Shown here: positions 1,784-35,036 of the stretch, piece after piece
Numbering within the stretch: position 1 is the stretch's first letter
Layout of the letters: the number at the start of each line of letters is the position of its first letter
Assembly (NCBI GenBank): GCA_036505355.1
Contig: DASXTP010000105.1
Location: 2,613-66,612 of the forward strand
From: Candidatus Eiseniibacteriota bacterium
GTDB lineage: Bacteria; Eisenbacteria; RBG-16-71-46
Direction: 5' to 3'
DNA length: 64,000 nt
Notes under the pieces: model-generated
What the model saw: the letters and a program-made list of their open reading frames with translations, nothing else
Databases searched by the model: none
Told to the model about the DNA's origin: nothing
Position numbers and translations under genes: made by a program

Positions 1784-2260
1784 TCAGGGCTGAGGAGGGC
1801 CCGCCACCGTGAGCGTCCGCAAATAGTCCACCACATTCAGGATCTGCCGCTCATTGAGCGTGTGCCCCCACGGGGGCATCCCGGTGGAGAGCCCGACCGC
1901 GCCACCACCGGAGCGGATCGCGGCCAGCAGATCGGCATCGGAGTGCCTCGCCTGGAAGCTCGAATCGGCCAGCGACCGGGGCCGCGGGTCAAGGTTGTAG
2001 GCATTGAAGCCGTCGCCCTTCCCGGCCTCGCCGTGGCAGTTCAGACAGTAGTGGCGATAGAGCGACCGACCTTCGCGGGCGTTGTATCCGAGTTCAGGGA
2101 TCGGCAAGATCGACGCGGAGTAGATCGCGCCAGCACTGTCGGCCGTCGTTGACTCGGCCGCCGTCGGCGCCCGCGTGGTACCGGTGCCACGACAGCCACC
2201 GCCGGCCCACGCCAACACCGCAGCCATCACCACCCCCGACGCGCACAGGCCGCGCCTCAT
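1784..2260 (-). CDS. monoheme c-type cytochrome (class I), secreted/lipoprotein-like
   Basis: Signal-like N-terminus MRRGLCASGVVMAAVLAWAGGGC. Single CLNCH heme motif and a later Met-containing region. ATGA start/stop overlap with the upstream octaheme cytochrome gene. Confidence 0.7.
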   Translation of the reverse strand: MRRGLCASGVVMAAVLAWAGGGCRGTGTTRAPTAAESTTADSAGAIYSASILPIPELGYNAREGRSLYRHYCLNCHGEAGKGDGFNAYNLDPRPRSLADSSFQARHSDADLLAAIRSGGGAVGLSTGMPPWGHTLNERQILNVVDYLRTLTVAGPPQP

Positions 2261-4314
2261 CGCCGCTTTTCTCCCCACCGTGCAGCCGGCTTGGCGGACG
2301 TAGCCGCGCCGTGCCCCACCGTTAGGGGCGGGATCGACGCCACGTACGCAGTCAGCGCACGGGCATCGGCGTCGTCGAGTCCGTAGTCGGGCTCGCGTGC
2401 GTCGGCCCGCCAGCGCTGCGGGGCCTTCAACCAGGAATAGATCCAGCCCGTCTTCAGCCGTTGGCCGGCCCCATCGAGGACAGGGCCATAGAAGCCCCCC
2501 CTGCCGCCGATCATGTGGCAGGCCTGACAGCCGTAACGCTCGTGGAAGAGTTTCCTCCCCCGCTCGACCTCCTCGGCTGCCGATGCGGCCGGGAGGATCT
2601 CTCCGGGGATGCTGTCGTTGCGCAACACGTTTTCGACGAAGCTGGCGATGAACGTCCGCTGGTCGTCGGGCATCTGAAGCTGGATCATTCGTTCTTCGAG
2701 GATCGGCCTGACCGTCGTCGGTAGCTTGAGGTAGCCGGCGAGCCAGCTCTCGCGCACCTTGCTCCCCTCGGCCGTGAGCGGCGCAGTGGAGATGTCGCCG
2801 CCTACTCCGCCGATCTGGTGACACGACATGCACCGGTACTGGCGCACCAGCTCCCCGAAGTGACCCGGAGGGGTATACGAAGTCTCGTGCACCGGCACCT
2901 GGTAGGCCACAGGGACCGGCACGCGCCCGATGGAGAGGAGCGCCGTCGTCAGCGCGTCCGTCTCGTGCTCGGTGAAGCCGAAACGAGGCATCTTCAGCCC
3001 GTCGCGGAACGAGCGTGGGTTGGTGATCTTGGCCGCGAGCCAGTCGGGCAGCCTGCGAGGTAGGTCGTCTCGCCGACCGAAATCGAGCCGGCCGACCGGT
3101 TTGTCCCCGATCCCAGTCAGCTCCGGACCAATCGCCGCTCCCTGACTGTGGCCGCCGATCTGGTGGCAGCCGTTGCAGCCCGCGCGGCGGAAGATGGCCT
3201 CACCTGCCTGCACCACGCGGTCGGCGGAGCGAATGCCCGGCGCGGGCGCCGGTGCCGACGCATCCGTGAATTCCTGAATCATGTAGTCGGCGAGGTCGGC
3301 CACGTCTGACCCACCGAAGTGATACCGCGGCATCTTCGTGTCGGGATAGAAGCGCTGCGGATCGGCGAGGAAGGCGACGAGCCAGCGGCGGGACACCTTG
3401 GACCCGACCCCTGATAACTCCGGCGCGCTCCCATTCCCCCGACCTTCGACGGTGTGGCACGAGATGCACCGCGAGGTCGAGAACAGAAGCTTGCCATGGT
3501 CCGCATTGCCCGACGCGACCACGGCGGTCGATTCGGCGTCGAGATCAACGCGCGGCGGGCGGCTCCACAGGAATGCCACCACCGAATCGATCTCGGCGGC
3601 GGTGAGCAGGAAATCAGGCATCCATGTCGAGGGTCGCAGGGACCTGGGCGACCGGATCCACGCTGCGAGCCACGCCGGATTGGTCTTCTGCGACAGCCCG
3701 GCGAGGTCGGGCGCTTCGCTCTTCCAGCCCTCGTGGCCCGCGACCTTGTGGCAGCCGAAGCAGCCCACCCGCGCCATGAGCCCGCGCCCCTCCGATAGGA
3801 GTGAGGCTTCGGGCACGGTATCGCCAGGATGACAGCGGCCACACGCTGCTTCGGTGTAGCGCACCGGGAGGATCGGCGAACTCCAGTCGGGTACGCGGCC
3901 GTGCGCCTCGGCCACGGTGGTCGCGCGCCCTTGCCCCAGATGACAGGCGACGCATCCGAACCGGTCGAGATCCCCGGGCGTGTGCGGCGTGCGCGGGTGC
4001 TGGCGGAACGGCTCGGGGGCCCCGGCCATGCGTGGCTCCTCGACGCCGAGGTGGCAGCTGACGCAGCGGTCGACATGATTGTCGAGCGCGGGCAGCCAAA
4101 TCTGGCGCACGCCCACCCCGCGCGTCTGGGCCTGCTTCAACTCCTTGAGCGAGGCCGCAGAGTGTAGCAGCCGCTGCCGATACTCATTCTGGTAGCGACG
4201 GTACTCGCGGAAGTAGTCCTTGATCGGTGAGATCGCCAGCACAAGGAGGAAGGTCACGCTGGAGACACCGAACCAGAACCACAGCCGGTCCGACGATGGC
4301 CCGGGCGAGTTCAC
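2257..4314 (-). CDS. membrane-anchored octaheme c-type cytochrome (cytochrome c subunit of the bc complex)
   Basis: GTG start preceded by GGAGGA and overlapping the subunit IV stop (GTGA). N-terminal TM helix (LWFWFGVSSVTFLLVLAI). Eight CxxCH motifs: CVSCH, CVACH, CGRCH, CFGCH, CISCH, CNGCH, CMSCH, CQACH. The last four lie in GxxLFxxxxCxxCH class-I-like modules. Confidence 0.75.
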   Translation of the reverse strand: MNSPGPSSDRLWFWFGVSSVTFLLVLAISPIKDYFREYRRYQNEYRQRLLHSAASLKELKQAQTRGVGVRQIWLPALDNHVDRCVSCHLGVEEPRMAGAPEPFRQHPRTPHTPGDLDRFGCVACHLGQGRATTVAEAHGRVPDWSSPILPVRYTEAACGRCHPGDTVPEASLLSEGRGLMARVGCFGCHKVAGHEGWKSEAPDLAGLSQKTNPAWLAAWIRSPRSLRPSTWMPDFLLTAAEIDSVVAFLWSRPPRVDLDAESTAVVASGNADHGKLLFSTSRCISCHTVEGRGNGSAPELSGVGSKVSRRWLVAFLADPQRFYPDTKMPRYHFGGSDVADLADYMIQEFTDASAPAPAPGIRSADRVVQAGEAIFRRAGCNGCHQIGGHSQGAAIGPELTGIGDKPVGRLDFGRRDDLPRRLPDWLAAKITNPRSFRDGLKMPRFGFTEHETDALTTALLSIGRVPVPVAYQVPVHETSYTPPGHFGELVRQYRCMSCHQIGGVGGDISTAPLTAEGSKVRESWLAGYLKLPTTVRPILEERMIQLQMPDDQRTFIASFVENVLRNDSIPGEILPAASAAEEVERGRKLFHERYGCQACHMIGGRGGFYGPVLDGAGQRLKTGWIYSWLKAPQRWRADAREPDYGLDDADARALTAYVASIPPLTVGHGAATSAKPAARWGEKRR

Positions 4315-5011
4315 AGGTGGACTCCTCCCTGCCACGGCCAGATCCACCTCCACCCGGGACCGCGGAAGAAGGTGCCGATCAGGGTGAGAGTGACCGCCAC
4401 GGTGACGAACCATGTCATGATCCAGTCGCTGATCGTCACGCGGACGAGCCGTCGCCTCCACCATGGGGGACAGGGCGGCAGCGAGGGCAGCAACATCGAC
4501 GAAAAGAGCAAGACCGTCGGCACGAGCACCGCCCATACGCGCCAGGCCACGAGGAAGGCCACGATCGCCGCGGCCACGGTGGTCAGCCACGCCAGCCGCC
4601 GTCGCGAGGGAGCCTCGAGGAAACCCCGGTCCTCGAGATTCGTTCGGAAGTAAGGGATCACCACCATCGCGACCACCACCATCCCCGGGATCAGCACGCC
4701 GGCGACGACCGGCGGGAAGTAGTGGAGCAACTCCTGAAGTCCGAGGAAGTACCAGGGCGCCTTGGCGGGGTTGGGCGTATTGGTCGGGTCGGCGATACCC
4801 TCGAGCGGAGAATCGAAGAAGAGCGACAGCAGCGCCATCGCGATCACGCAGACCTGGATCAGGATGACCTCGCGCAGCAGCAGATGCGGCGCCGTCATCA
4901 CGGTTTCGTCCTGGTCGAAGAGGACGCGGGCGGCGGTCTCGGGGCGGAGGATTGCCAGCCGTTTCGGCGTCGCCGTGGCGTCGCTGCTCGGCTCCAGCCG
5001 GTACTCGGTCA
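4311..5011 (-). CDS. petD: cytochrome b6-f complex subunit IV-like (cytochrome b C-terminal domain)
   Basis: PWYFLGLQELL motif and 3 TM helices. Separate gene directly downstream of the cytochrome b6 N-terminal domain gene (ATGA overlap), i.e. a split cytochrome b as in b6f-type complexes. Confidence 0.8.
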
Positions 5012-5755
5012 TGCTTCCTCCCTGCGAAGGGGAGCCGTGCGACACGACCCGGCGAGGCCGCCGTCCTTGCGCACCCGCCAGAGATGGAGCCCGACCAGGA
5101 ACACCAGCGCCAGCGGCAGGATGACGCAGTGAAGCACGTAGAAGCGGAGGAGGGCATTTTCGCCGACGATGTTGCCGCCCAGCAGCAGATAACGGAACTG
5201 CGGCCCGATGACCGGCATCGCCTTCACCATGTTCGTGCCGACCGAGACCGCCCAGAAGGCGAGCTGGTCCCACGGTAGGAGATAGCCGGTGTAGCTCAAG
5301 AGCAGCGTCAGCAGCAAGAGGGCGACGCCGATTACCCAGTTGAACTCGCGCGGTGGGCGGTAGGCCTTGTGATAGAAGACGCGCAGCATGTGCAGGAAGA
5401 CGACGATCACCATCGCGTGCGCGGGCCAGCGGTGCAGGTTGCGGAGGAACATGCCGTTGCTCACCGTGAACTGCAGCTCTTTCATATCGTGGTAGGCCTG
5501 TGGCACCGAGGGGTGGTAGTAGAGCATCAGCAGGAGGCCGGTGGCGGTGAGGATCGCGAACAGGATCAGGCCAACGGCCCCGAGGTAGTACGTGCTCGAG
5601 CCTTCGAGGCTGCGCCGCCGCACCTTGGCCGAGTGCAGGTGCAGGGTGAGACTTTCCATCACCACCATCACGCGGTTGCGGTTCGTGGCCCGGATACCGT
5701 GGCGGACCACGGAGCGCCACACACGGCTCTCGGTGATCGACTCCGGTAGCTTCAT
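5009..5755 (-). CDS. petB: cytochrome b6 (cytochrome b N-terminal domain)
   Basis: Four-helix bundle with conserved His pairs ([19 protein letters not shown]) and the WDQLAFW motif typical of cytochrome b/b6. Confidence 0.85.
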
Positions 5756-5764
5756 CTCGTCCTC

Positions 5765-6244
5765 TCAGAACCGGTCGGTGGTGCCCGCCGGAACCTCTAC
5801 CGCCGTGTCCACGATCAGCTCTCCCTTTTCGGAGAGGCTCATCTGCAACCAGCGGAGGGGGCGCGGCGCGGGTCCCGCGACGACGTCGCCGGCGAGCGTG
5901 AACTGGCTGCCGTGGCAGGGACAGGCGATGATGTTCCGGTCGGGCTGGAAGCGCGTGATGCATCCGAGGTGGGTGCACACGGCCGACAGCGCCCGGAATC
6001 CTTCCGCGATTCGGATCACGTAGGCGCGCTGCTCCACGTTGGTCACCACCGATCCAACCTCGATCGCCTCTGGCGGCCCGGCGGAGAACGCAGTGGGCGG
6101 CTCAAACAGCACGCGCGGCCGGAGGAAGTCGACCAGCACCACGCCTGCACCACCGGCCGCCACGGCACAGGCAGTCAGCCCGGCGGCAACGCAGAAATCG
6201 CGGCGTGTGATTGGCGGTACGTTGGCGACGTCGGCGTCAGACAT
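5765..6244 (-). CDS. petC: Rieske [2Fe-2S] iron-sulfur protein with Tat signal
   Basis: Twin-arginine motif ITRRDFCVAAG. Rieske boxes CTHLGC and CPCHGS. Confidence 0.85.
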   Translation of the reverse strand: MSDADVANVPPITRRDFCVAAGLTACAVAAGGAGVVLVDFLRPRVLFEPPTAFSAGPPEAIEVGSVVTNVEQRAYVIRIAEGFRALSAVCTHLGCITRFQPDRNIIACPCHGSQFTLAGDVVAGPAPRPLRWLQMSLSEKGELIVDTAVEVPAGTTDRF

Positions 6245-8111
6245 GGGCCGGCTCCAGCAGCCGGAACTGCTCCATGGTGATGGTCCCCGCTGGGCAGCGA
6301 TCGGCACAAAGTCCACATCGGATGCAGACCGTCTCGTCTTTGATCAACGCAGTGCCCGAGCCACCTTGCTTGGCGAGCAGCGCCGCAGCGGTCTCCCCGT
6401 GTTCCGTGCGCACCAGATCCCGCAGCGCCGGATCGGCCGCGAGCTCCGACAGCGGCAGGAAGCTGATGCAATCCTCCGGACACACGTCGGCGCAGCCGCC
6501 GCACAGGATGCACTCGGTGCCCTGCTCCGCATCTTCGTGAAACACGGTGTTGACCCAGCAGTGGAAGCAGCGCGAGGCCTCGCGTTGCGCGTCCGCCTCC
6601 GAGAAACATTGCTCGATTTCAGCGATGCCGACCCGCCGCTCGATCGGCAGGGCCGGTGGACGCTGGCGAGGCACACCCTCGTAATCCAGCACGCGCCGGT
6701 ATCCGGGCAACGGTTCGATGAGCACTTCCTCAGGCGGCAGCGGGAGTGCAGAACCGCGTAGATAGGTGTGGATCGAAGCGGCGGCCTTCTTGCCGTCGGC
6801 GACGGCCTCGATCGCGATGCGTGGTCCGAACGCGGCGTCGCCCCCAGCGTAGATGCCCGGAGCGCTGGTAGCGAGCGTCGTCGGATCCACCTGAAGCGTA
6901 CTGCGCGGCGTCACCGCCACGCCGTCCTCCGGCTGCAGGAACGACAGATCGCAGGCCTGACCGATGGCGAGCACGATCGTGTCCGCCGCGATCGCCAGCT
7001 CGGTGCCGGGTACGAACGTGGGATTGAAGCGGCGCTGGGCGTCGAAGACAGCAGAGCACTCGATGGTCTCGAGACCGGTCACGGAGCCCGCCTCGCCGAG
7101 AATGCGTTGCGGGCCCCGCCCCGGGTGGATCACGATGCCCTCCCGCTGCGCCTCGCGGATCTCCTCGCGGTCGGCCGGCATGGCCTCGAGCGACTCGAGG
7201 CACACGATGTGAACTTCCTTGGCGCCAAAGCGGATCGCGGAGCGCGCGACGTCGAACGCCGTCACGATGTTGAGGCCCGGATGGATGACCTCCTCCCGCG
7301 CCGGAGCCCGCAAGGCGGAACGGGCCACGTCCACCGCGACGTTCCCGCCGCCGACGACCAGCACGCGCCGGCCGAGCTCGACCCGGTAGCCCATGTTGAC
7401 GTTCAGCAGGAAATCCACGCCCTTGAGGACCCCGTCTAGATCGGCGCCGGGAATCTCGAGATCGCGGCTCCGCTGCGCGCCAGGGGCGAGAAAGACGGAC
7501 CGGAAGCCCTGGCGGCGCAGGTCCGACAGCAAGAAATCACGGCCGAGGCGGGCCCCGACCTTGAGTTCGACGCCGAGGTTGAGGATCGCGTTGATCTCGA
7601 GCTTGATCAGCTCGCGCGGCAGACGATATTCGGGGATCCCAAGCCGTAGCATCCCTCCCGGCACCGGCTGAGCTTCGAAGATGGTGACCGGGTAGCCGAG
7701 AAGCGCCAGGTCGTGCGCGGCCGCAAGCCCCGCCGGGCCTGCGCCGATGATCGCCACGCGGTCCTCCGGGTAGCGCCGCAGACGATCACCGTAGATCTCC
7801 TTCAGCAGATCCACGTCCATCATGCTCTCCACGCCGAAGCGCTCGGTGACGAAACGCTTGAGCGCCCGGATGGCAATCGGCTCGTCGAGCGCCCCCCGCC
7901 GGCACGCCGGCTCGCAGGGCGCGGCGCAGATGCGACCACAGATGGACGCGAGCGGATTCGGCCGCCGCGCCACGGCGTAGGCCTCGCGGTACTTCCCCTC
8001 CGCGATCAACGCAACGTAACGCCCGGCCTCCGTGCCGACGGGACAGGCCTTGAAGCAGGGGAAGTTGCTCTCCAGCCACCCCCGGTCGACGAGGCGATCC
8101 GAATCGGACAC
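6237..8111 (-). CDS. NAD(P)H-dependent FAD oxidoreductase of the glutamate-synthase small-subunit (GltD) family fused to 2x[4Fe-4S] ferredoxin domains
   Basis: N-terminal Cys cluster (CFKACP...CGRICAAPCEPAC). Two Rossmann GxGxxG motifs (IIGAGPAGLAAA, VVGGGNVAVD). C-terminal CILCGGCADVCP and CIRCGLCADRCP ferredoxin motifs. Confidence 0.75.
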   Translation of the reverse strand: MSDSDRLVDRGWLESNFPCFKACPVGTEAGRYVALIAEGKYREAYAVARRPNPLASICGRICAAPCEPACRRGALDEPIAIRALKRFVTERFGVESMMDVDLLKEIYGDRLRRYPEDRVAIIGAGPAGLAAAHDLALLGYPVTIFEAQPVPGGMLRLGIPEYRLPRELIKLEINAILNLGVELKVGARLGRDFLLSDLRRQGFRSVFLAPGAQRSRDLEIPGADLDGVLKGVDFLLNVNMGYRVELGRRVLVVGGGNVAVDVARSALRAPAREEVIHPGLNIVTAFDVARSAIRFGAKEVHIVCLESLEAMPADREEIREAQREGIVIHPGRGPQRILGEAGSVTGLETIECSAVFDAQRRFNPTFVPGTELAIAADTIVLAIGQACDLSFLQPEDGVAVTPRSTLQVDPTTLATSAPGIYAGGDAAFGPRIAIEAVADGKKAAASIHTYLRGSALPLPPEEVLIEPLPGYRRVLDYEGVPRQRPPALPIERRVGIAEIEQCFSEADAQREASRCFHCWVNTVFHEDAEQGTECILCGGCADVCPEDCISFLPLSELAADPALRDLVRTEHGETAAALLAKQGGSGTALIKDETVCIRCGLCADRCPAGTITMEQFRLLEPAHV

Positions 8112-8118: not shown

Positions 8119-8709
8119 CTACTTCTTCATCGCGAAGTCGGCCGCTGTCGCCCCCGCGATGGTGACGGTCTTGCCGACCTCGGCTTTGAACCTCGGGTGC
8201 CAGACCTTCACGGTGTAGGCGCCGTCGGGGAGGCCCTTGATGGCATAGGCGCCGGTCTTGTCGGTGACGGCGAACCAGGGGGTCGGAAGCACGACGACGA
8301 AGCCTTCCATCTCGGCGTGCACGTGGCACAGAAGTGTGGCGTTGCATCGCGTCTTGAACGTGTAGCTACGAATCTGCCCCTGCGGCCAGCTCCCCAGGTT
8401 GAACTGCTCGCAACACTTGTCGGGCGAGAAGACGTTGTGGAGGACCTGGTCGCCATTGAGGAAGTCGACCGTGGTCCCCATCAGCACGGGTAGGACGTGG
8501 GGCGTGAACACCAGGTTCTTCTGATTCATCTTGGCGTGAGTCGTCGGCGCCGGGAACTTTTTCCCGGCGATCGCGTCGATATAGACGACCGCGTCGGCGT
8601 TGTTCTTCATGCCGGCCACCGTGACGACCCCTTTGAGCTCCCCTGCCGCCGCGGCCCAAGCCACCACGAACGTCAACACGGCACATCCCATGCCGGACAA
8701 GAGTTTCAT
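8119..8709 (-). CDS. secreted blue copper protein (cupredoxin, type-1 Cu site) with carboxypeptidase-regulatory-like C-terminal segment
   Basis: Signal peptide MKLLSGMGCAVLTFVVAWAAAAG. Putative Cu ligands H (LHNVFS, as in plastocyanin PHNIVF) and C-x2-H-x2-M (LLCHVHAEM, amicyanin-like spacing). C-terminal TGAYAIKGLPDGAYTVKVWHP. Confidence 0.6.
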   Translation of the reverse strand: MKLLSGMGCAVLTFVVAWAAAAGELKGVVTVAGMKNNADAVVYIDAIAGKKFPAPTTHAKMNQKNLVFTPHVLPVLMGTTVDFLNGDQVLHNVFSPDKCCEQFNLGSWPQGQIRSYTFKTRCNATLLCHVHAEMEGFVVVLPTPWFAVTDKTGAYAIKGLPDGAYTVKVWHPRFKAEVGKTVTIAGATAADFAMKK

Positions 8710-8744: not shown

Positions 8745-10067
8745 TCAGAATCCGATGATGACGCCGAGCGTGCCTCCCTCATTCGTGAACTTGCCGCCCG
8801 GCTCCTTCACCCAGGTGCCGGCCAAGAACGACTTGACGTTGGCGCGGGCCAGGCCGTTGACGGTGAGCGATACCTGCTCGGTCTTCTCGTCGGCGATCTT
8901 GAGCGACTCCCACCTCCCGGCCGGAATCAGCCAGGGAAGCGCCACCCAGGACAGTTCCGCGAATTGGTTCTTGATCTTGACGTCGGTGATCGTCGGATCC
9001 GCCACGAAAAGACGGTCGTCCTTCCGGTCCGTGTATCCGGCGCGCGCCATCAGGTCGAGGTAATTCACGGCCATGTCGCCCCCGGCCATTCGAAACGGAT
9101 CGCGGGCGTTGGGGTCCAGGGGATCTCCCCCTTCGAGGATGCTCTTGCCCTTGTAGACGAACCCGGAGAGCGTGAGGGAGGTCTCGCTCCACGGCTTGGG
9201 GTTGGTCGGCAGCGCCGCTTCTGCGCCACCGCTGGGAACTCCGTCGAACGGCAGCCCGCCGAGCTTGTAGGCCAGCCGACCGTACACGTCCTTCGAATTG
9301 TCGCCGATGCTTCCCGATCCCTCCACCACACCGGCGTTGTAGAGCACGCGGTGCTCGAGCATTCCGTAGGCCTCGAGACCTTGCTGGAAGCCATCGGGAG
9401 CCCAGGGGTTGTCGCCGGCGGACTCCGTCAAGACCAGCGGTTCCTGGTCCAGGATGGAGCGGTGCGAGGACAGCAGCATGATTCCTGGCTCGAAGGAGCC
9501 GACCTTGAACTGCAGGGCGGGCGAATCGAGCGGGCGCACCAGCAGATTGACGCGCTCCATCTCGGTCGCGATCTCGCTCCCGTCGCGGGCGAACACAACC
9601 GATCCCCAGAAGGAGAAATGCTCGTCGAGGGTCCCGGCGCCCAGAATTTCGAGCTCGCCGCCCATACCACCAAATGTGGTGGTCTTGGTCGCGTGATCGT
9701 AGTCGACCGCGCTCGTGTAGAGGACAGCGACCGGCGGCATCCCGGGGATCTCTCCCGGCCAGACCGCATGCGGCCAGAGCTTCTTGTAGCCCTCAGCGCC
9801 GATCGAGACCGGAGGGATCTTCGTCATTGCCGCATCGTTGCCCCCAGGAAAGCGGTAGCCATTCTGTCGGAATGCCTCGCCGAAGGGAGTCAGCGCGGGG
9901 ATCGCGACGTGGCAAGTCTGACAGCTCGTCTGGTACTTCCGCGCAAACGCCGGAATCGTGTAGGCATTCCGGGGCGCGATCAGCGCCGCCGAATACAGCA
10001 CGATCAGCGTCAGCCCGAACACGGTACGTACGTCGAACACCATCGGCTTGGGTCCTTCTCGTAGCAT
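8745..10067 (-). CDS. cyc2: Cyc2-like fused monoheme cytochrome c / outer-membrane beta-barrel porin
   Basis: Signal peptide then a single CQTCH heme motif about 45 aa from the N-terminus (AFARKYQTSCQTCHV). The remaining ~380 aa have alternating beta-strand character and end in the OMP-type terminal ...GVIIGF. Size (440 aa) and architecture match Cyc2 of iron oxidizers. Confidence 0.6.
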   Translation of the reverse strand: MLREGPKPMVFDVRTVFGLTLIVLYSAALIAPRNAYTIPAFARKYQTSCQTCHVAIPALTPFGEAFRQNGYRFPGGNDAAMTKIPPVSIGAEGYKKLWPHAVWPGEIPGMPPVAVLYTSAVDYDHATKTTTFGGMGGELEILGAGTLDEHFSFWGSVVFARDGSEIATEMERVNLLVRPLDSPALQFKVGSFEPGIMLLSSHRSILDQEPLVLTESAGDNPWAPDGFQQGLEAYGMLEHRVLYNAGVVEGSGSIGDNSKDVYGRLAYKLGGLPFDGVPSGGAEAALPTNPKPWSETSLTLSGFVYKGKSILEGGDPLDPNARDPFRMAGGDMAVNYLDLMARAGYTDRKDDRLFVADPTITDVKIKNQFAELSWVALPWLIPAGRWESLKIADEKTEQVSLTVNGLARANVKSFLAGTWVKEPGGKFTNEGGTLGVIIGF

Positions 10068-10196
10068 GGCCCCTCCTCGCGTCAGCGGGACTTTCGAACG
10101 AGGACGAGGCTAGAAGGACAAGGCGAGCGTCACCATCCGCGGAACGAATCATTCTTCTGATGCGGATGCATCAGAAGTCTGCCAGCCGAGGAGGGC

Positions 10197-10868
10197 TCAG
10201 AGCAGGTGGGTGCGAAGCGCCAGCGAGACTGCCTCGAGCTTGCTGTGGACGTCGAGCTTGCGGAGGATGTTCTGAACGTGGTTCCGTGTCGTCGTAACGC
10301 TGATGAACAGTGAATCGGCGATGCCCTGAGTGCTCGTTCCTTCGGCCAGAAGAGCGAGGACCTGGACTTCGCGCGGGGTCAGCACCGGCGACGGGGGCAA
10401 CGACGGCTCGTTGGCCGCGGGAGCCGACACCGGTGGGGCGTGTTGCTGGGTCAGGATTCGGCGGATCAGCTGGTCGACATCGCGGCGACGATCGACCCGC
10501 TCCAGGAAGTGGATCAGCGTGTACTGCCGCGCGCGAGGGCCTGGCATCACGACGATCGAGAAGCTGGCCGGGACGGTCTCGCCCGACTCGTTGCGGACGT
10601 CGAGCTCGAAGTGGCGTACCGATTCGTGTCGTTCGACCATGAACGTCAGGGCGCACTGGCGGTCGCAGAAGCGGTTACCGAAGACATCTCGCCCACAGAG
10701 GATCTCATGGCAGGACTTGCCGAGGACCTGGGAGGCGGGATAGCCGAGCATCTCCTGGGCACCCTTGTTCCAGATGGCGATGCGCCCCTTCTCGTCGGTC
10801 GCGAAGGCGGCCGCGCCGGCGCGGCCGATCACGTCCAGTGGGTCCACGATCAACGCATCCTTTCGCCT
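10197..10868 (-). CDS. LuxR-family transcriptional regulator with N-terminal PAS sensor domain (start uncertain)
   Basis: C-terminal LuxR HTH (LTPREVQVLALLAEGTSTQGIADSLFISVTTTRNHVQNILRKL). PAS-like segment (IAIWNKGAQEMLGYPASQVLGKSCHEIL). Upstream part of the long ORF looks non-coding. Confidence 0.65.
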   Translation of the reverse strand, partial: RRKDALIVDPLDVIGRAGAAAFATDEKGRIAIWNKGAQEMLGYPASQVLGKSCHEILCGRDVFGNRFCDRQCALTFMVERHESVRHFELDVRNESGETVPASFSIVVMPGPRARQYTLIHFLERVDRRRDVDQLIRRILTQQHAPPVSAPAANEPSLPPSPVLTPREVQVLALLAEGTSTQGIADSLFISVTTTRNHVQNILRKLDVHSKLEAVSLALRTHLL

Positions 10869-11269
10869 CTGCGCGAATCCTCTCCCCCGCGCCTCGTCCA
10901 GCGCGCAACGAGAGCGGGCCAATGGTCCTACCTCATCCCACAGGAAGGCAGCGGGATCGTTGGGCCCTGGCGCGGCTGGAGAGCATAGGCACTCGGACCC
11001 TGCTTTCGACGAAAAATCAGCGAATCGAATAGCGGACCCTCGCCCTACCACTTGGCCATGCCGCATCAACAAACTGCGGGGTAGAGACTTATGGCGCACT
11101 CGGGGAGCGAAAACCGACCCGAAAGATCCGACAAGACCGCTGCGGCGACCCCGCCACGGGTCGCCACTCTTACCCCCCGTCCAGACCTAGCGCGCGGGCG
11201 GCGCATTTTGTCGCAGCTTTTCCCCCAGCCGCTTCGCCCAGTCCAGCGACAGCGCGATCTCGCGGCGCT

Positions 11270-16179: not shown

Positions 16180-17343
16180 TTCGGAATTACCGGACATAGG
16201 GCGTTGAAAACGTGAGACCTGCCTTGTATCCCTTGGTTGCTGTTTGCCAACGGCACCTAGGGACAAGGAGGTCTCACGATGAGGCTTCGACTCAGACGGC
16301 CGACTCGGTTGTGGTTGCGGCGATTGGACCGCAAGACTCGCGACGCCGAAGTTCGGGTGCGCTGTCGAGTGTTGTTGAAGGTGGCGGCCGGGATGACCCG
16401 CCACGCTGCCGCGCGGGCGATCGGCTGTGCGCCCGCGACCGCGTGGCGCATCGTAGCGCGTTTTGAGACCCACGGGGAAGCCGCGCTGATGGACGGTCGG
16501 AGTGAGAACGGACGACCCAAGGTCGACGACGATATACGCGCCGGGATCTGCAAGATCCTGGAGCAGAGCCCGCCGGACTTCGGCTTTCCGCGTCCGACCT
16601 GGACGCTGGAGCTGTTGACGCGTGTGATCCAGCAGGTGCTGCAGGTGGCGGTGTCGGTCGGTCACCTGTGGAAGATCCTGCGGCGGTTGCGCGTGCGCTG
16701 GGGACGTCCGCGTCCAGTCGTGCGCTGCCCGTGGAACGCCGCGCACCGCGCGGCCCGGATCGCGGTGCTGCGCCGCCTGGTGGCGCAGCGGCAGCCGGGC
16801 GAGGTGGTGCTCTACGTGGACGAAGCCGATCTGCACCTCAATCCCAAGATCGGTCCCGACTGGATGCTGCTCGGCACGCAGCGCGAGGTGGTGACCCCCG
16901 GCCAGAACGAGAAGCGCCACCTGGCGGGCGCCTACGATCCCGCCCATCAGCGGCTGGTCTACGTCACCGGCGATCGCAAGGCGAGCTGGCTGTTCCTGAA
17001 CCTGCTGCGCGCCCTGCTGGACGCCTGCCGCTGGGCACGCCGCATCCATCTGATCCTCGACAACTACATCATCCACAAGAGCCGCCTGACCCTGGCGTGG
17101 CTCGGCCGTCACGGCGCCAAGTTGCGGCTGCACTTCCTGCCGCCCTACTGCCCGAACGAAAACCGGATCGAACGCCTGTGGCTCGATCCGCATGCCAACG
17201 TGACCCGTAATCACCGGTGCCGCACCATCGATGAGCTACTGGGCGCGGTTCACCACTACCTCGCCCGACGGTTTGATCTCGCTCAAGTCATTGCCTATGC
17301 GGCCTGACCACAGCCTTCCCGAATCAGGCGAAGGCATTTAGCA
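16158..17343 (+). mobile_element. intact IS630-family insertion sequence (about 1.19 kb)
   Basis: 25-bp terminal inverted repeats TGCTAA(G/A)TGCCTTCGCCTGATTCGG at 16158-16182 and, reverse-complemented, at 17319-17343, flanking a single transposase gene. Confidence 0.8.
16279..17307 (+). CDS. IS630-family DDE transposase
   Basis: N-terminal HTH, then VLYVDEADLHL ... LPPYCPNENRIERLW (DDE with IS630-type spacing). 342 aa with good SD (GGAGG) upstream. Confidence 0.85.
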   Translation: MRLRLRRPTRLWLRRLDRKTRDAEVRVRCRVLLKVAAGMTRHAAARAIGCAPATAWRIVARFETHGEAALMDGRSENGRPKVDDDIRAGICKILEQSPPDFGFPRPTWTLELLTRVIQQVLQVAVSVGHLWKILRRLRVRWGRPRPVVRCPWNAAHRAARIAVLRRLVAQRQPGEVVLYVDEADLHLNPKIGPDWMLLGTQREVVTPGQNEKRHLAGAYDPAHQRLVYVTGDRKASWLFLNLLRALLDACRWARRIHLILDNYIIHKSRLTLAWLGRHGAKLRLHFLPPYCPNENRIERLWLDPHANVTRNHRCRTIDELLGAVHHYLARRFDLAQVIAYAA

Positions 17344-20437: not shown

Positions 20438-21973
20438 CTAGGAAGCGCCCAGGACGGAACGCACCACGCCCCGGCAGTCCTCGCTGGCCTCGGCGAGCGC
20501 GGACTCGAGGCGGCGCAAATCCATCTCCACCCCTTGCTTATCGGCGCCGTCGGGTATGGACTTCAGGTTGATTTCGACGTTGAGGAGGGCTCCCTCGGCA
20601 GCCGCCCGGGCCAAAAGCCCCGCCACCCCCGCATCGGTGATCGCGTTGACGTTGCCCCACTTGGCAACCGCCGCCGCCACCTCCACCAACCGCAGGCAGG
20701 CCGCGGCGGTTCGCAACGGAACGCGTGCCGCCTCGAGGTTGGCCTGCGCCAATGCTCGGGCGCGGGCGTCCGCCTCGGACGCCGTGGCATGGGCGAGGCG
20801 CCCCGCCTTCAACACCGCCTCGAAGGCTTCGCCATCGGCCCGCGCCAGCCCCATCAGCTCGCCCCGCAAGGCTTCGGCGTCGCGCCTGAGATCCCGCAGC
20901 GTCGCCTCCTGCTCGGCGTACTTCTTCTTGCCGGTCGAGAGGTTCGCCACCATGGTGACCAGGCAGCTCGCCAGCGCGCCGGCGAACGCCGCCGCCGTTC
21001 CGCCACCCGGCGTGGGCGTCGGGCCGGCGAGTTGATCGAAGAAGCTGGCAATCGAAGTCGCCTCGGCGAGCGGAGGGCGCTTGAGCCTCCGCTCGAGCAC
21101 CTGGTCGCGCCGGAAGCTCTCGAGCTGCAGCGCGTGCTCCGCCGCATCGAGGAGACAGTACTCGGGCACCAGTCCCACGACCTCGCAGCCGGCGATCGCC
21201 GCCCCACGGCGCGCCGCCTCGTCGCGCACCAGGGCCAGCACGCGATGGATCGGCGTCGCCTCGGTGTTGACCAGGTTCATGCTCACCTGCGCCCGACGCC
21301 CGCCCTCGATCGAGAAGCCGAGCGCCCGCACGTGCTTGAGCCCGCCGTTCTGCTCGCGGATCGCCCGCGCGATCGCCTGCGCGATGCGCACGTCGCCGGT
21401 GTTGAGGTTGGCGTTGAACGCCACCAGAAAACGCCGCGCCCCAACCGCCGTCGCCCCGGCCTTCGGGTGAATCTTCGCCGGGCCGAAATCGGGCGCGCGC
21501 GCGGGGTCTTTGCCGATCCGCTCGCGCAGGCCTTCGAATTCGCCGCGGCGCACGTCGGCCAGGCTCACGCGGTCGGGACGCGAGGCGGCGGCCTCGTAGA
21601 GGAACACCGGGATCTCGAGCTCCTCGCCGATGCGCAGACCCAGGGCGCGGGCCAGGTCGGCGCACTCGTCCAACGTGAGCCCCTCGATCGGCACGAACGG
21701 CACCACGTCGGTCGCCCCCATGCGCGGATGCTCGCCCCGGTGATGGTTCAAGTCGATCAGCTCGGCCGCGCGGCGCACCGCGCGAAAGGCGGCCTCCATC
21801 ACCGCTTCCGGCTCGCCGGCGAAGGTCACGACCGAGCGATGGTGATCGGGGTCCATCTCGCTGTCGAGGAACGTGGCGCCGGGGACCGAGGTGATGGCGC
21901 GGATCAGGTCGTCCACCACCTCGCGGCGGCGGCCTTCCGAGAAGTTGGGCACGCACTCGACGAGTCGGGTCAT
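20438..21973 (-). CDS. ftcD: glutamate formimidoyltransferase / formimidoyltetrahydrofolate cyclodeaminase (bifunctional)
   Basis: N-terminus MTRLVECVPNFSEGRR is the formiminotransferase signature. The C-terminal ~190 aa are the helical cyclodeaminase domain. Confidence 0.85.
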   Translation of the reverse strand: MTRLVECVPNFSEGRRREVVDDLIRAITSVPGATFLDSEMDPDHHRSVVTFAGEPEAVMEAAFRAVRRAAELIDLNHHRGEHPRMGATDVVPFVPIEGLTLDECADLARALGLRIGEELEIPVFLYEAAASRPDRVSLADVRRGEFEGLRERIGKDPARAPDFGPAKIHPKAGATAVGARRFLVAFNANLNTGDVRIAQAIARAIREQNGGLKHVRALGFSIEGGRRAQVSMNLVNTEATPIHRVLALVRDEAARRGAAIAGCEVVGLVPEYCLLDAAEHALQLESFRRDQVLERRLKRPPLAEATSIASFFDQLAGPTPTPGGGTAAAFAGALASCLVTMVANLSTGKKKYAEQEATLRDLRRDAEALRGELMGLARADGEAFEAVLKAGRLAHATASEADARARALAQANLEAARVPLRTAAACLRLVEVAAAVAKWGNVNAITDAGVAGLLARAAAEGALLNVEINLKSIPDGADKQGVEMDLRRLESALAEASEDCRGVVRSVLGAS

Positions 21974-22022
21974 GACCGGGGCCTGGTTCGAGCACGACGC
22001 GCGTCGGGGATCGCGGCCCCGC

Positions 22023-23330
22023 TCACGGCCACACCCGCCGCTCCATCGCCGGCAGCGCCAGGTCGGCGCCGCGCACGAACACGCAGTCCGGGCGCACCGC
22101 CGGCATCCAGTAGGGCAGCTCCTCGAGGGTCTCGCATTCCCAGGTCACCGCATCCCCCGATGCCCCGGGGTTCAAGTGCCCCACTTGATCTTGCAGGCCG
22201 AGCGCCTTGGCGGCATTCCAGGTGATGGCGAGCAGTAGCTCTTCGGGCCGGAATCCGCACAGTCGCGCTGCCAGCGCCGCGCACTCGAGCAGCGATTGGG
22301 CGGGGGCAGTGCCGGGGTTGAAGTCGGTGGCGATCGCGACCCGCGCCCCACTCTTGCGCAGCATGCGGGCCTTGGGCAGGCGCTGGCCCAACGTGAGCGC
22401 GGCGGCCGGCAGCAGCACCCCCACCGTGCCCGACGCCGCCAGGGCCGCCCAATCTTCCTCGGTCGCCTTCTCGAGGTGGTCGGCCGAAAGGGCCCCGAGC
22501 TCGGCCGCGAGCCGCGCCCCGCCGCTGTGCTCCAGCTGATCGGCGTGCACCCGCAGCCCCATGCCGTGCTCGCGCGCCCGCGTGAGCACGCGCCGGCATT
22601 CCTCGACCGTGAACGCCACCGGATCGCAAAACACGTCCACCGCGGTGGCGAGCTCACGGCTCACGATCTCCGGCATCAGATCGCACATCGCCTCGACGTA
22701 GTCGCCGCGACGCTCGTGGTACTCCTCGGGCAGCGCGTGCAGCAGCAGCGCCGTGCGCTGCACCCGCACCGGTACCCGCTGCACCGCCCCGCGCATCAAC
22801 CCAAGCAGGCGCAGCTCGTCCCGCGGCTTGAGCCCATAGCCGCTCTTGACCTCGACGGTGGTGCAGCCACTGGCGCGCCAGCGCTCGAGACGCGCGGCCA
22901 GCGACTTCTCGAGCGCCTCGTCGCGCTCGGTGGTGGTGGCGCGCACCGTCGTCCGAATGCCGCCGCCGCCGGCCGCGATCTTGGCGTAGCTCTCGCCGCC
23001 GAGCTTGCGCCGGAACTCCTGGGCCCGATGACCGGCGAAGATCATGTGGGTGTGGCAGTCCACCAGCCCCGGCGTGACGAGCCGCCCGTTGGCGTTGATC
23101 GGGCGCGCCTCGCCGTGGCGTCGCATCAGCTCGGCGCTGATTCCGACCTCGAGCACGCGGCCGTCCCGGAACACCACCGCCCCCTTCGGGTAGCGGATGA
23201 CGCCGCGGCCTTCCGGATCGGGGGTGACCACCTCGGAGGCGTTGTAGAGCAACAGATACGCCGCGCGCCCGGCGACGGTCCGCACCGAGGGATCGCGCGC
23301 CGGCCCGACCGTGGTCGACGGCTTTGCCAT
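22023..23330 (-). CDS. hutI: imidazolonepropionase
   Basis: Amidohydrolase fold with LVTPGLVDCHTHMIFAG and later HADQ/D motifs. Position in the hut operon. Confidence 0.9.
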   Translation of the reverse strand: MAKPSTTVGPARDPSVRTVAGRAAYLLLYNASEVVTPDPEGRGVIRYPKGAVVFRDGRVLEVGISAELMRRHGEARPINANGRLVTPGLVDCHTHMIFAGHRAQEFRRKLGGESYAKIAAGGGGIRTTVRATTTERDEALEKSLAARLERWRASGCTTVEVKSGYGLKPRDELRLLGLMRGAVQRVPVRVQRTALLLHALPEEYHERRGDYVEAMCDLMPEIVSRELATAVDVFCDPVAFTVEECRRVLTRAREHGMGLRVHADQLEHSGGARLAAELGALSADHLEKATEEDWAALAASGTVGVLLPAAALTLGQRLPKARMLRKSGARVAIATDFNPGTAPAQSLLECAALAARLCGFRPEELLLAITWNAAKALGLQDQVGHLNPGASGDAVTWECETLEELPYWMPAVRPDCVFVRGADLALPAMERRVWP

Positions 23331-23331
23331 G

Positions 23332-25017
23332 TCAGTCGGTGACTCCCGGCAGCTTCATCCCGGTTCGGCGCGCGTGCTCGATGGCTTCGGGGTAGCCGGC
23401 GTCGGCGTGCCGCATCACCCCGGTTCCCGGGTCGTTCGTCAACACCCTCGTCAGCCGCTCGTCGGCCGCCGCGCTGCCGTCACAGACCACCACCATGCCG
23501 GCATGGATCGAGTTGCCGATGCCTACCCCACCGCCATGATGCACGCTCACCCACGAGGCGCCCGAGGCGGTGTTGAGCAGGGCGTTCAAGATCGGCCAGT
23601 CGGCCACCGCGTCGCTGCCGTCCCGCATCCCCTCGGTTTCACGAAACGGCGACGCCACCGAGCCGGCGTCGAGATGGTCCCGCCCGATCACGATCGGGGC
23701 GGCGAGTCGACCTTCGCGCACCATGCGGTTGAAGCGCATCCCGAGCCGCGCCCGCTCGCCGTGGCCCAACCAGCAGATCCGCGCCGGCAGTCCTTGGAAG
23801 CGCACCTGCTTCTGGGCCAGCGGGATCCAGCGGTGGAGCCGGGCATCGTGTGGAAACTCCTCGAGCGCCGCCTGGTCGGTGGCCAGGATGTCGGCGGGCT
23901 CGCCCGAAAGCGCCGCCCAACGGAACGGTCCCTTGCCGACGCAGAACAGCGGCCGCACGTATTCGGGCACGAAGCCCGGATACGAGAACGCCTGATCGTG
24001 CGGCAGCCCGCCTTGCTCGGCCTCGCCCCGCAGGTTGTTGCCGTAGTCGAACAGCACGGTGCCCCGCGCCTTCCAGGTCAACAGCGCCCGCACCTGCTGC
24101 GCCATCGAGGCGCGGGCCCGGCGCACGTGCTCCTCGGGCTGTCGCGCGCGCAGCTCGGCCGCCTGCTCGAGCGAGAGCCCGGCCGGGACGTAGCCGTTGA
24201 GCGGATCGTGAGCCGACGTCTGGTCGGTGGCCACGTCGGGCTTGAGGCCGCGCTCGAGCAGCAGGGCGTGCACTTCGGCCGCGTTACCCACCAGGCCCAC
24301 CGACAACGGCCGCCTCGACTCCGCGGCTCCCCGCGCCCACGCCAGCGCCTCGTCCAGCGAACGGGTGAGCCGGTCGCAGTAGCCGGTCTCGACGCGGCGT
24401 CGCGCCCGCGCTTCGTCCACCTCGACCGCCAGACACACGCCCCCGTTCATGGTGATCGCGAGCGGCTGCGCCCCCCCCATGCCACCCAGCCCGGCGGTGA
24501 GCACCACGCGACCAGCCAGTGAACCGCCGAAATGGCGCGCCGCGCACTCGGCGAAGGTCTCGAAGGTGCCCTGGACGATGCCCTGAGAGCCGATGTAGAT
24601 CCAGGAGCCGGCGGTCATCTGACCGAACATGATGAGGCCCTTGCCCTCCAGCTCCCAGAAGTGCTCCCAGGTCGCCCAGCGCGGCACCAGCAGCGAGTTG
24701 GCGATCAGGACGCGGGGCGCGTGGGGGTGGGTGCGGAACACTCCCACCGCCTTGCCCGACTGCACCAGCAACGTCTCGTCGTTCTCGAGTGCGCGGAGTG
24801 CTACGACCAGGCCATCGAAGGCCGCCCACGAGCGGGCCGCCTTGCCGGTGCCACCGTAGACCACGAGATCGTCGGGGCGCTCGGCGACCTCGGGATCGAG
24901 GTTGTTCATCAACATGCGGAGCGCGGCTTCCTGGGTCCACCCCTTGCACGACTGCGCCGTCCCGCGCGGCGCCCGCACGGTCCGTGCCTGGGAACGGCTC
25001 GTGATCACGGCGCTCAT
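23332..25017 (-). CDS. hutU: urocanate hydratase
   Basis: [41 protein letters not shown] matches the HutU N-terminus. ATGA overlap with hutH. Confidence 0.9.
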
Positions 25018-26543
25018 GACGCCAACACCTCCTCGGCCAGGCGCACCGGCGCCTTCGACACCACCCATCGCGCGACCACCTCGCACGGCTCGGACAACGG
25101 CCGATCGCCCTCGGGCGCCGGCGCCAACCGGCGCACCGCTCCATAGAGCCGCTCCGCGCCCTGGCCGGCCTGGAGCGGCCGCCGGAACTCGAGCGCGCGA
25201 CAGGCGCACAGCAGCTCGAGCGCCACCACCCGGGCCGCGTTGTCGACCACCTGGCGCAGGTGCCGCGCCGCGATCGGCGCCATGCTCACGTGGTCCTCGA
25301 GGCCGCCGCCGGTGGGAATGGAGTCGACGCTCGCCGGATGGCAGAGCACCTTGTTCTCCGACACCAACGCGGCCGCGGTGTACTGGGCCATCATGTACCC
25401 CGACTCGAGGCCCGGCTCGCTCGCCAGTACGGCTGGCAGCTCCGAGACCCGCCCGTCGGTGAGGCGGTCGATGCGGCGCTCGGACAGCGATGCCACCTCG
25501 GCAACCGCGATCTTGAGGTAGTCGGCGGCCAGCGCCACCGGCTGGGCGTGGAACAATCCCGCCGAGATCACGATACCCGGTTCGGCCAACACCAGCGGAT
25601 TGTCGTTCACGCTGTTGATCTCGACCTCGAGCTGGCGCTCGACGTGGATCAGGGCATCCCACGATGCGCCCATCACCTGGGGCACGCAGCGCAGGCTGTA
25701 GGCGTCCTGCACGCGGTCGCAGTTGGCGTGGGATGCCACCAGCGCGCTGCCCTCCGAGTACGCGCGCAAGCGCCGCGCGGTCTCGAGCGCGCCCGGATAG
25801 GGCCGCAATCCCTGGACGTCGGCGCGCGCCGGCTGGAAGGAGCCGAGCAGCACCTCGGTGGACAACGCCGCCGCGGCGACCGCCGCTTCCCACAACGCCC
25901 GCGCATCCACGCACGCCAGCGCCGCCAAGGCGGTCGAGAGCTGGGTGCCGTTGATGAGCGCCAGCCCTTCCTTGGCCTCGAGCGTCAGCGGCTGGAGACC
26001 CGCGCCGCGCAGCGCCAAGGCGGCCGGCATGCGCTGGGCGCCGTGATCCGACCCGAGCCACGCTTCTCCTTCCCCGACCAGCACCAACGCCAGGTGGGCG
26101 AGCGGCGCCAGATCGCCCGAGGCGCCGACCGAACCCTGCAGGGGGATGACCGGCGTCAGGTTGCGCTCGAGCAACTGGAGCAGGGCGTCCACCAGCTCGG
26201 GCCGGCAGCCCGAGCAGCCGCGCGACAGCGACGCGGCGCGCAAGAAGATCATGGCCCGGGAAACGTCGCGAGACGCCAGGGGCCCGACGCCAGCCGAGTG
26301 CGAGCGCAGCAGGTTGAGCTGGAGCTGGCGCACTTGCTCGGGCTCGATCGGGTGATCCTTGAGCTCCCCGAAGCCCGTGGTCACGCCGTACACCGCCCGC
26401 CCCTCGGCGAGCGCGGTCTCGATCACCCGCCGGCTCGCCACCAGGCGCTGGCGCGCCGACTTGCCCAGGGTCACCGGAGCGCCCTTCCGGGCCACCTGCA
26501 CCACGTCGCCCAACCCGAGCGGCCGACTCCCGAGCTCGATCAC
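25014..26543 (-). CDS. hutH: histidine ammonia-lyase
   Basis: [15 protein letters not shown] carries the Ala-Ser-Gly triad that forms the MIO cofactor. Confidence 0.9.
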
Positions 26544-35007: not shown

Positions 35008-35036
35008 CGAGGGGAATGCCCCCCCGTCGGCTCCAC

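Follow-up and report, generated by a model that had tools for sequence, protein, structure and literature searches.

The DNA analysed here is a stretch of 64,000 nucleotides, referred to throughout as the window, from Candidatus Eiseniibacteriota bacterium (NCBI GenBank assembly GCA_036505355.1, contig DASXTP010000105.1, positions 2,613 to 66,612 of the forward strand). It carries an eight-gene operon on the minus strand, the seventh gene of which encodes a cytochrome c with eight heme-binding motifs; very probably this octaheme protein stands in for cytochrome c1 or f as the c-type subunit of the Rieske/split-cytochrome-b complex encoded beside it. The gene and the parts of its product, numbered by amino acid (aa), are as follows.

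2257–4314, minus strand: octaheme cytochrome c gene, 685 aa, translated from 4314 to 2257
4225–4284, minus strand: N-terminal signal-anchor helix (aa 11–30), placed by hydropathy and aligning with the anchor of the Kuenenia hexaheme subunit
3820–4086, minus strand: compact triheme region (aa 77–165) with motifs CVSCH, CVACH and CGRCH and distal His106, His111 and His138
2320–3819, minus strand: five tandem class-I cytochrome c modules, A to E (aa 166–665), with hemes 4–8, placed by BLASTP, Pfam and alignment

Translation from 4314 to 2257 gives an unbroken open reading frame (ORF) of 685 codons, with CxxCH motifs at aa 84, 121, 158, 185, 283, 380, 495 and 596, and every cysteine in the protein (16/16) sits inside one of these eight motifs. 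Composition-matched shuffles (n = 200,000) contained at most two CxxCH per sequence, with a mean of approximately 0.01. The count of eight, claimed in an earlier reading of this DNA (the original prediction), is borne out by relatives: the top 120 database homologues, 664–750 aa in length, have exactly eight CxxCH in 120/120 cases, and the motifs are conserved in approximately 78 species-level orthologues. An identical database entry exists, annotated ‘c-type cytochrome [Candidatus Eisenbacteria bacterium]’. That the ORF might be an artefact, or in fact two genes, was considered and rejected: the open frame is intact, the chain is continuous in an AlphaFold2 (AF2) model, and the homologues are full length, at 635–710 aa, so the sequence represents one gene. 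Nor do any of the CxxCH motifs lie in the membrane, since hydropathy finds a single hydrophobic segment, at aa ∼10–32. The GTG start overlaps the TGA of the subunit-IV-like gene (ccTGTGAac), confirming the translational coupling that had been proposed, and is preceded by GGAGG 9 nt upstream; at the other end, the TGA stop overlaps the ATG of the downstream monoheme cytochrome c gene (cgATGAgg).

The first four motifs had been described as atypical and the last four as canonical class-I modules. The grouping of the first four holds in that they form the conserved N-terminal base of a wider family (below), but as a domain boundary the 4 + 4 architecture is replaced by 3 + 5, because five class-I modules homologous to one another can be traced, and the fourth motif (CFGCH) lies in the first. 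These units of ∼100 aa match one another in pairwise BLASTP with E values of 1e-16 to 3e-4. Pfam reports class-I cytochrome c four times, including a Cytochrome_CBB3 match at aa 174–249 that takes in CFGCH, and gives just weak c7/c3/NapB-type matches over aa 77–162.

Ligand conservation was followed in an alignment of 44 homologues (55–88% identity), and then in approximately 78 species-level orthologues. Three conserved distal histidines, His106, His111 and His138, provide three ligands for hemes 1–3; they are invariant in the 44 homologues and conserved in 71–77/78 of the wider set. The axial position of modules A–D (hemes 4–7) is occupied by Met232, Met328, Met442 and Met543, again invariant in the 44 homologues and present in at least 73/78 orthologues. 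Module E is not canonical, because the corresponding position is Glu or Cys: it is Glu641 in the window protein (codon 2392–2394) and is never Met in the family, where 37 loci (Eisenbacteria, Krumholzibacteriia, Zixibacteria, Calditrichaceae and Terriglobia) have Glu and 33 (Thermoanaerobaculia, Holophagae and Polarisedimenticolia) have Cys. No conserved Met or His for heme 8 was found in the octaheme alignments. The eight sites are presumably occupied by heme, and the pattern at module E suggests that the last heme of the chain has His/Cys or open coordination.

The AF2 model (predicted local distance difference test, pLDDT, 73.8; predicted template modelling score, pTM, 0.69) has a helix at aa 8–52, in which the anchor runs on into a long, conserved amphipathic helix ending at aa ∼52. 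Foldseek found 0 whole-chain matches to the model in the PDB at E ≤ 1e-3; single class-I modules only matched, to NorC, SorU, SoxX and mitochondrial cytochrome c. Sequence profiles searched against the PDB align modules A+B with actinobacterial diheme QcrC and with Acidithiobacillus ferrooxidans cytochrome c4, and returned no solved homologue for the triheme base. An N-terminal anchor followed by closely spaced hemes, together with weak matches to c7, c3, NapB and DmsE models, might also describe a free-standing quinol dehydrogenase, membrane-anchored and akin to NapC, NrfH and CymA, with no tie to the complex other than the operon. However, these multiheme matches all fall below cut-offs, and a NapC/NrfH-type assignment was rejected for want of any NapC/NirT match in Pfam or NCBIfam; furthermore, the N-terminus is homologous to Kuste4573 of the Kuenenia complex (PMC12954380), and the gene directly follows that for subunit IV, with a 4-nt overlap at each junction checked. 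We consider such an independent enzyme very improbable.

The operon runs in the order Cyc2-like, cupredoxin, GltD-like, Rieske, cytochrome b6-like, subunit-IV-like, octaheme and monoheme cytochrome c, its genes separated by gaps of 35, 7 and 9 nt or overlapping by 4–8 nt. In the last four, from cytochrome b onwards, successive start and stop codons overlap by 4 nt. The genes closest to the octaheme gene encode the remainder of the complex and a small cytochrome.

6237–8111, minus strand: GltD-like NAD(P)-binding iron–sulphur (FeS) flavoprotein, 624 aa, Fer4_20 + Pyr_redox_2 + C-terminal 2×[4Fe-4S] (Pfam/NCBIfam)
5765–6244, minus strand: Rieske 2Fe-2S subunit, 159 aa, with twin-arginine translocation (Tat) motif RRDF and boxes CTHLGC and CPCHGSQF
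5009–5755, minus strand: four-helix cytochrome b6-like subunit, 248 aa (Pfam Cytochrome_B, 9e-44)
4311–5012, minus strand: subunit-IV-like membrane protein, 233 aa, ∼4–5 hydrophobic segments (Pfam Cytochrom_B_C), ATGA overlap with cytochrome b
1784–2260, minus strand: class-I cytochrome c with one heme, 158 aa, lipoprotein-like signal (…WAGGGC), sharing ATGA with the octaheme gene

The start of the Rieske gene overlaps the stop of the GltD-like gene by 8 nt. Hydropathy found no hydrophobic segment in the GltD-like protein, as for a cytoplasmic protein. Across the family, Rieske box II reads CPCHGS[RKQ]F, in which the potential-raising Ser is kept and Tyr is replaced by Phe. Both heme-ligand His pairs are present in the cytochrome b6-like subunit, and all four His align with those of Kuenenia cytochrome b. 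The subunit-IV-like protein is longer than the classical three-helix subunit IV, and its Qo motif is APWY rather than PEWY, as in 72 related loci and in Kuenenia. The label ‘b6f-type’ is therefore apt for the split cytochrome b6/subunit IV genes (248 + 233 aa), but not for the Qo motif or for heme cN: the Cys that binds heme cN (ci) at the start of helix A is missing from the window and from all of approximately 70 family loci, where Tyr, Trp or Phe takes its place, and a true b6f/b6c type with heme cN was rejected for this reason.

Scans for sigma-70 promoters and for terminators at the operon ends gave nothing exceeding shuffles. Directly downstream of the operon lie a truncated IS630-type (DDE_3) transposase and a sigma-70 region-2 gene fragment (872–1378 and 1433–1738, both minus strand), and an intact transposase copy is found 15 kb from the operon (16279–17307, plus strand). 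The remnants at the 3′ end suggest a past insertion or rearrangement.

A species-level scan, in which one genome per species was considered, found relatives in at least 500 genomes; taxa and loci were taken from the best 80. These 80 belong to Eisenbacteria, Krumholzibacteriia, Zixibacteria, Calditrichaceae, metagenome-assembled genomes labelled Bacteroidota or Methylomirabilota, and Acidobacteriota, the last spanning five classes and including Geothrix, Acidobacterium, Granulicella, Terracidiphilus and Bryobacteraceae. Synteny was examined by tblastn with nine window proteins (the eight of the operon and an adjacent regulator). Gene order and strand were alike in essentially every locus with enough flank, across approximately 70 species-level genomes: every locus of sufficient length carried the GltD-like gene, most had the Cyc2-like/cupredoxin pair, and in nearly all the monoheme cytochrome c gene followed the octaheme gene. 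The 4-nt overlap between the octaheme and subunit IV genes was seen at all junctions checked (the window and loci L001, L002 and L003), and in the remaining loci the octaheme gene directly followed that for subunit IV. It is because the genes are coupled, their order is invariant, and there is homology to Kuste4573 over the anchor and the first two hemes that we assign the octaheme protein to the complex, as the original prediction had done; the physical assembly of the subunits is presumed.

The N-terminal part of the protein belongs to a larger family. When the first 170 residues were searched against 1.84 billion cluster representatives, 506 matched at E ≤ 1e-10, and the best 150 of these had 4–11 hemes each (with one outlier of 19), five and eight being the commonest numbers. 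In these 150, the first four hemes are held at conserved spacing (∼75, 112, 149 and 176) and are followed by a variable number of ∼100-aa modules. The ‘extended electron wire’ envisaged earlier fits such a family, in which class-I modules appear to have been added like beads. Among distant eight-heme representatives, traced by cluster look-up, one match was to Ca. Deferrimicrobium.

Two sampled variants of the family (L086 and L087) again follow GltD-like, Rieske and cytochrome b genes. The first (L086:4070–15795) has a decaheme relative of 900 aa after GltD-like, Rieske and fused cytochrome b (515 aa) genes; the decaheme gene directly precedes a molybdopterin oxidoreductase and three Fer4 proteins, and an NnrS gene lies upstream. 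The second (L087:1399–17074) has GltD-like, Rieske, cytochrome b and subunit IV genes, after which come an octaheme of 717 aa and a pentaheme paralogue of 357 aa. It is of a different lineage, its cytochrome b retaining the heme-cN Cys, unlike the window family, and it further carries a subunit of a cytochrome bd-like oxidase, a cytochrome c and, 7 kb downstream, a Cyc2-like gene (AVPSFARQTGESCYGCHIAFPKL). Since these variants pair the core of NAD(P) oxidoreductase, Rieske, cytochrome b and multiheme cytochrome with other partner genes, the core looks like a general module, combined with differing periplasmic or outer-membrane partners.

One alternative account of the cluster is that it encodes an ordinary respiratory complex III, whose octaheme subunit relays Rieske electrons to soluble carriers and thence to a terminal oxidase or reductase, heme-copper or otherwise, with the GltD-like protein as an accessory or separately acting enzyme and the Cyc2-like porin unrelated. 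The occurrence of the cluster in the aerobic heterotroph lineages Granulicella, Acidobacterium, Terracidiphilus and Bryobacteraceae is in keeping with this, as are the resemblance of the class-I modules to the electron-entry domains of CcoO, NorC and QcrC and the proximity of related variants to a cytochrome bd-like oxidase or a molybdoenzyme. However, an accessory role sits poorly with a GltD-like gene that shares 8 nt with the start of the Rieske gene and occurs in every sufficiently long locus, and an unrelated porin with a Cyc2-like/cupredoxin pair found in most; this account also leaves the eight hemes, and a heme 8 lacking Met, unexplained. We judge it unlikely.

The upstream end of the operon carries these two further genes and, beyond them, a regulator.

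8119–8709, minus strand: secreted cupredoxin domain fused to a CarboxypepD_reg-like domain (Pfam CarboxypepD_reg, 1.5e-8)
8745–10067, minus strand: fused monoheme cytochrome-porin of Cyc2 type, 440 aa, with 10043 as an alternative start
10154–10177, no strand assigned: perfect 24-bp palindrome CTTCTGATGCATCCGCATCAGAAG with arms of 10 bp, in the gap separating the regulator from the cyc2-like gene
10197–11099, minus strand: PAS + LuxR/GerE-type regulator, start codon uncertain (Pfam GerE 1.3e-18, PAS_9 1.4e-11)

Nothing in Pfam matched the 440-aa Cyc2-type protein. Members of the Cyc2 family have a single CXXCH preceded by PXFAR[Q/K][T/Y] and followed, four residues later, by PXL; they are at least 365 aa long and are modelled as a 16-strand porin on OprO/OprP (Keffer et al., PMC8406198). 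The window protein agrees with these motifs and with this length, having the signature TIPAFARKY-QTS-CQTCH-VAI-PAL and ending in Phe. Its AF2 model (pLDDT 78.8) has 16 beta strands, and Foldseek matches the model to 16-strand porins, including OprP (2o4v) and OprO (4rjw), at E of 1e-10 to 1e-8. P39, R43, Y45, C49, C52 and H53 are invariant in 49 homologues, and the signature stands ahead of the complex in 43 related loci, with a PSYARQT variant in further Terriglobia loci.

The cupredoxin match is weak (Pfam Copper-bind, 1e-3, 19.9 bits, under the 21.2 cut-off), and type-1 copper ligands are predicted at H91, C128, H131 and M134, the pattern HNV...C-x2-H-x2-M recurring in 54 loci. Two extra cysteines, Cys99 and Cys122 (8344–8415, minus strand), co-vary across orthologues: position 122 is Cys in 29/55 and Gly in 26/55, and position 99 is Cys in 28 and otherwise Gly, Ser or Asn, a pattern that suggests an optional disulfide. 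In loci of Eisenbacteria, Thermoanaerobaculia and Holophagae (L001–L004 and many others), the PAS-LuxR regulator keeps its upstream place. TGATGCA half-sites related to the palindrome occur at the same place in L006, L008, L014, L017 and L018, and the palindrome at 10154–10177 is a candidate operator of the regulator.

Another reading has the complex running in reverse, as a confurcating quinone reductase: electrons from extracellular Fe(II) and from NAD(P)H would meet at Qo and make quinol, a variant on the ‘uphill’ branch known from acidophilic iron oxidisers, in which the former arrive by way of Cyc2, cupredoxin or cytochrome c, octaheme and Rieske, and the latter through flavin adenine dinucleotide (FAD), FeS clusters, bH and bL. 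Every Cyc2-family protein characterised biochemically is an Fe(II) oxidase (PMC8406198); the parts parallel Cyc2, rusticyanin, cytochrome c4 and the PetI bc1 complex of A. ferrooxidans (PMC10654088), whose cytochrome c4 is the protein that modules A+B resemble; and the midpoint between NAD(P)H and a donor at ∼+200 mV would, on established potentials, lie near menaquinone. Sequence cannot show direction, however, no carbon-fixation or lithotrophy genes are present in the 64-kb window, and such a complex would use up NAD(P)H instead of making it, so that no clear benefit to the cell can be seen. A complex working in this sense is, in our estimation, decidedly unlikely.

We favour, with a probability of roughly 0.55, the reading that the complex is an anammox-type, possibly NAD(P)-reducing quinol oxidase, in which the octaheme protein serves as a periplasmic wire coupled to iron redox chemistry at the outer membrane. 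By sequence, its core (GltD-like, Rieske, b6-like, subunit-IV-like and, in its N-terminal part, multiheme c) is homologous to the anammox Kuste4569–4573 complex. The N-terminal helix would anchor the octaheme protein beside cytochrome b and subunit IV, with the triheme base presumably near the membrane. Quinol would be oxidised at Qo and its electrons would bifurcate, as proposed for the anammox complex. The first would pass from the Rieske centre into the octaheme protein, probably entering at the triheme base and then crossing the His/Met modules, and through hemes 1–8 to the monoheme lipoprotein cytochrome c and the cupredoxin, such that the ‘high-potential’ branch leaves the membrane. The second would travel from bL to bH and, instead of reducing a quinone at Qi, to the FeS clusters of the GltD-like protein, FAD and NAD(P)+ on the cytoplasmic side. 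The octaheme protein would feed a pool in the periplasm that connects to the Cyc2-type cytochrome-porin of the outer membrane and forms a junction, much as rusticyanin provides the branch point in Acidithiobacillus. That co-encoded porin would be the partner of the pool, and the complex would be wired to extracellular iron redox chemistry; the Cyc2-type protein may feed Fe(II) electrons in or pass electrons out to high-potential Fe(III).

Several points weigh against this reading. NAD(P)+ reduction is still a proposal even for the anammox complexes (PMC12954380), and heme cN, which those complexes have, is absent here. The function of Cyc2 homologues outside known iron oxidisers is uncertain (PMC8406198), and the window looks heterotrophic, with histidine-utilisation (hut) genes and peptidases. 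Bis-His hemes beside a high-potential Rieske protein, together with a terminal heme that lacks Met, are unexpected in a wire that simply runs downhill. The octaheme AF2 model is only moderately confident (pLDDT 73.8). Finally, K/R-rich residues come after the anchor helix, and the positive-inside rule does not clearly predict an N-in orientation; the heme domain is placed in the periplasm on the logic of c-heme maturation and on homology.

The hut set, at 20438–26670 (minus strand), consists of formiminotransferase-cyclodeaminase, amidohydrolase and urocanase, the domains of the urocanase being confined to the C-terminal half of a 1112-aa ORF call. A PorV-like protein adjoins a 1507-aa Peptidase_C25 (gingipain-type) protein with an FlgD-Ig domain at 40390–45965 (minus strand), and a 1026-aa subtilase is encoded at 54159–57239; by sequence, the Peptidase_C25 and subtilase proteins look like type-IX-secretion cargo of a proteolytic heterotroph. 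Elsewhere in the window, DnaE (DNA polymerase III alpha) is split by an intein with a LAGLIDADG homing-endonuclease domain (47240–52033, minus strand), and a 1570-aa ORF call without a Pfam match at E ≤ 1e-5 (30432–35144, minus strand) is a putative gene.

It is possible, and we put it forward tentatively, that the cluster represents a widespread but undescribed respiratory module of Acidobacteriota, Eisenbacteria and other phyla of the Fibrobacterota–Chlorobiota–Bacteroidota (FCB) group, in which Cyc2 and cupredoxin are wired through a chain of 4–11 hemes to a Rieske/cytochrome b complex with an NAD(P) oxidoreductase replacing Qi, the terminal Glu/Cys heme serving as a special low-potential or reactive site. 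A search of a limited literature set found no earlier description of a cluster of Cyc2, Rieske/cytochrome b and NAD(P) oxidoreductase in Acidobacteriota or Eisenbacteria. If the proposal is true, a quinol-based bifurcation or confurcation machine would link extracellular iron redox chemistry directly to the NAD(P)H pool in abundant heterotrophs of soil and sediment. Rieske/cytochrome b complexes bearing an NAD(P) oxidoreductase have until now been discussed almost only as an anammox peculiarity, and the homologous core is common well outside anammox bacteria. Heterotrophs have many ‘orphan’ Cyc2 homologues whose function iron biogeochemistry has yet to settle, and the fixed link to Cyc2 supplies a definite candidate for their partner in the inner membrane; the modular c subunit of 4 to 11 hemes constitutes a natural experiment in tuning the length of an electron wire. 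Relatives are carried by the cultivable genera Geothrix, Acidobacterium and Granulicella, which makes the mechanism tractable to test.

Among the nearest known systems are the complexes of anammox bacteria, which contain a b6-like cytochrome b, subunit IV, a cytochrome c with six or eight hemes and a cytoplasmic NAD(P) oxidoreductase, subunits that co-migrate, and which were proposed (Kartal 2013) to reduce NAD(P)+ by bifurcation at Qo (PMC12954380). The nearest solved relative of the window Rieske protein is Kuste4569 of Kuenenia (9rk4; 107 bits, E 9e-30, against 64 bits for the runner-up). BLASTP against one Ca. Kuenenia locus (L005) gave 50% identity for cytochrome b (E 4e-84), 35% over the full length for the GltD-like protein and its Kuste4570 orthologue (E 4e-107), 42% for the Rieske protein and 29% for the subunit-IV-like protein (E 2e-28). 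In the octaheme protein, aa 7–138, comprising the anchor and two hemes, align with aa 2–143 of the Kuenenia hexaheme protein (29%, E 1e-10), and the remainder is unrelated in architecture.

The window and Kuenenia Kuste4569–4574 (‘R/b-2’) have in common a Rieske protein, a GltD-like protein, a four-helix b6-like subunit, a subunit IV of ∼240 aa with APWY and an anchored multiheme cytochrome c, and the window retains the LHLH(P/S)AKV motif, whose His has been put forward as ligand of an additional heme b. They differ in gene order, the NAD(P) oxidoreductase gene standing first in the window core; in the c subunit, with 6 hemes of c554/c7 type in Kuenenia and 3 + 5 class-I modules here; in the heme-cN Cys, present in Kuenenia (TWCMGG) and replaced by Tyr in the window (TYYLGA); and in the last residue of Rieske box II, Tyr in Kuenenia and Phe in the window family. 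Moreover, the window locus has no octaheme partner resembling hydroxylamine oxidoreductase (HAO), as found in Kuenenia, but Cyc2-like, cupredoxin and monoheme cytochrome c genes instead. The original prediction had missed this anammox precedent, along with the GltD-like NAD(P) oxidoreductase, the Cyc2-type porin-cytochrome and the cupredoxin.

Nor is a multiheme c subunit without precedent: hexa- or octaheme cytochromes c are known from bc-like operons of anammox bacteria, Nitrospina and Methylomirabilis (PMC12954380, PMC3578206). An octaheme protein beside a b6-type bc operon was noted for Nitrospina, Kuenenia and Methylomirabilis (PMC3578206), and in Nitrospina gracilis, Kuenenia Kustd1480–1485 and Methylomirabilis oxyfera an atypical octaheme is the only candidate for the c subunit, a likeness drawn from its published description (PMC3578206). 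The Kustd1480 Rieske protein is more distant from that of the window (59 bits) than is Kuste4569 (107 bits).

The Geobacter ExtOPQS system, a selenite/tellurite cluster with a Rieske/cytochrome b module, supplies the best NCBIfam names for cytochrome b (ExtP), subunit IV (ExtQ) and part of the octaheme protein (ExtS). Assignment to these equivalogs was rejected, as all scores fall under the cut-offs (ExtP 260 < 290, ExtQ 50 < 150, ExtS 94 < 100), and Geobacter ExtS is a lipoprotein of ∼260 aa whereas the window protein is an anchored octaheme. Actinobacterial QcrC (7q21, 6hwh), which aligns with modules A+B at E of 5e-7 to 1e-5, is similar in having tandem class-I modules, anchored to a bc complex, that relay Rieske electrons over a distance. 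It differs in having two hemes, no bis-His triheme base and no NAD(P) module, and in its place within a bcc-aa3 supercomplex. Lastly, although the iron-oxidation chains of Acidithiobacillus (Cyc2, rusticyanin, Cyc1/CycA1 and the PetI bc1 complex) and Leptospirillum (Cyt572, Cyt579 and a bc complex) differ in being encoded by two operons, with a cytochrome c1, an unsplit cytochrome b and, in sdrA, another kind of NAD-binding protein, they are built from parts similar to those of the window cluster: an outer-membrane porin-cytochrome of Cyc2 type, a blue-copper protein, class-I cytochromes c and a Rieske/cytochrome b complex.

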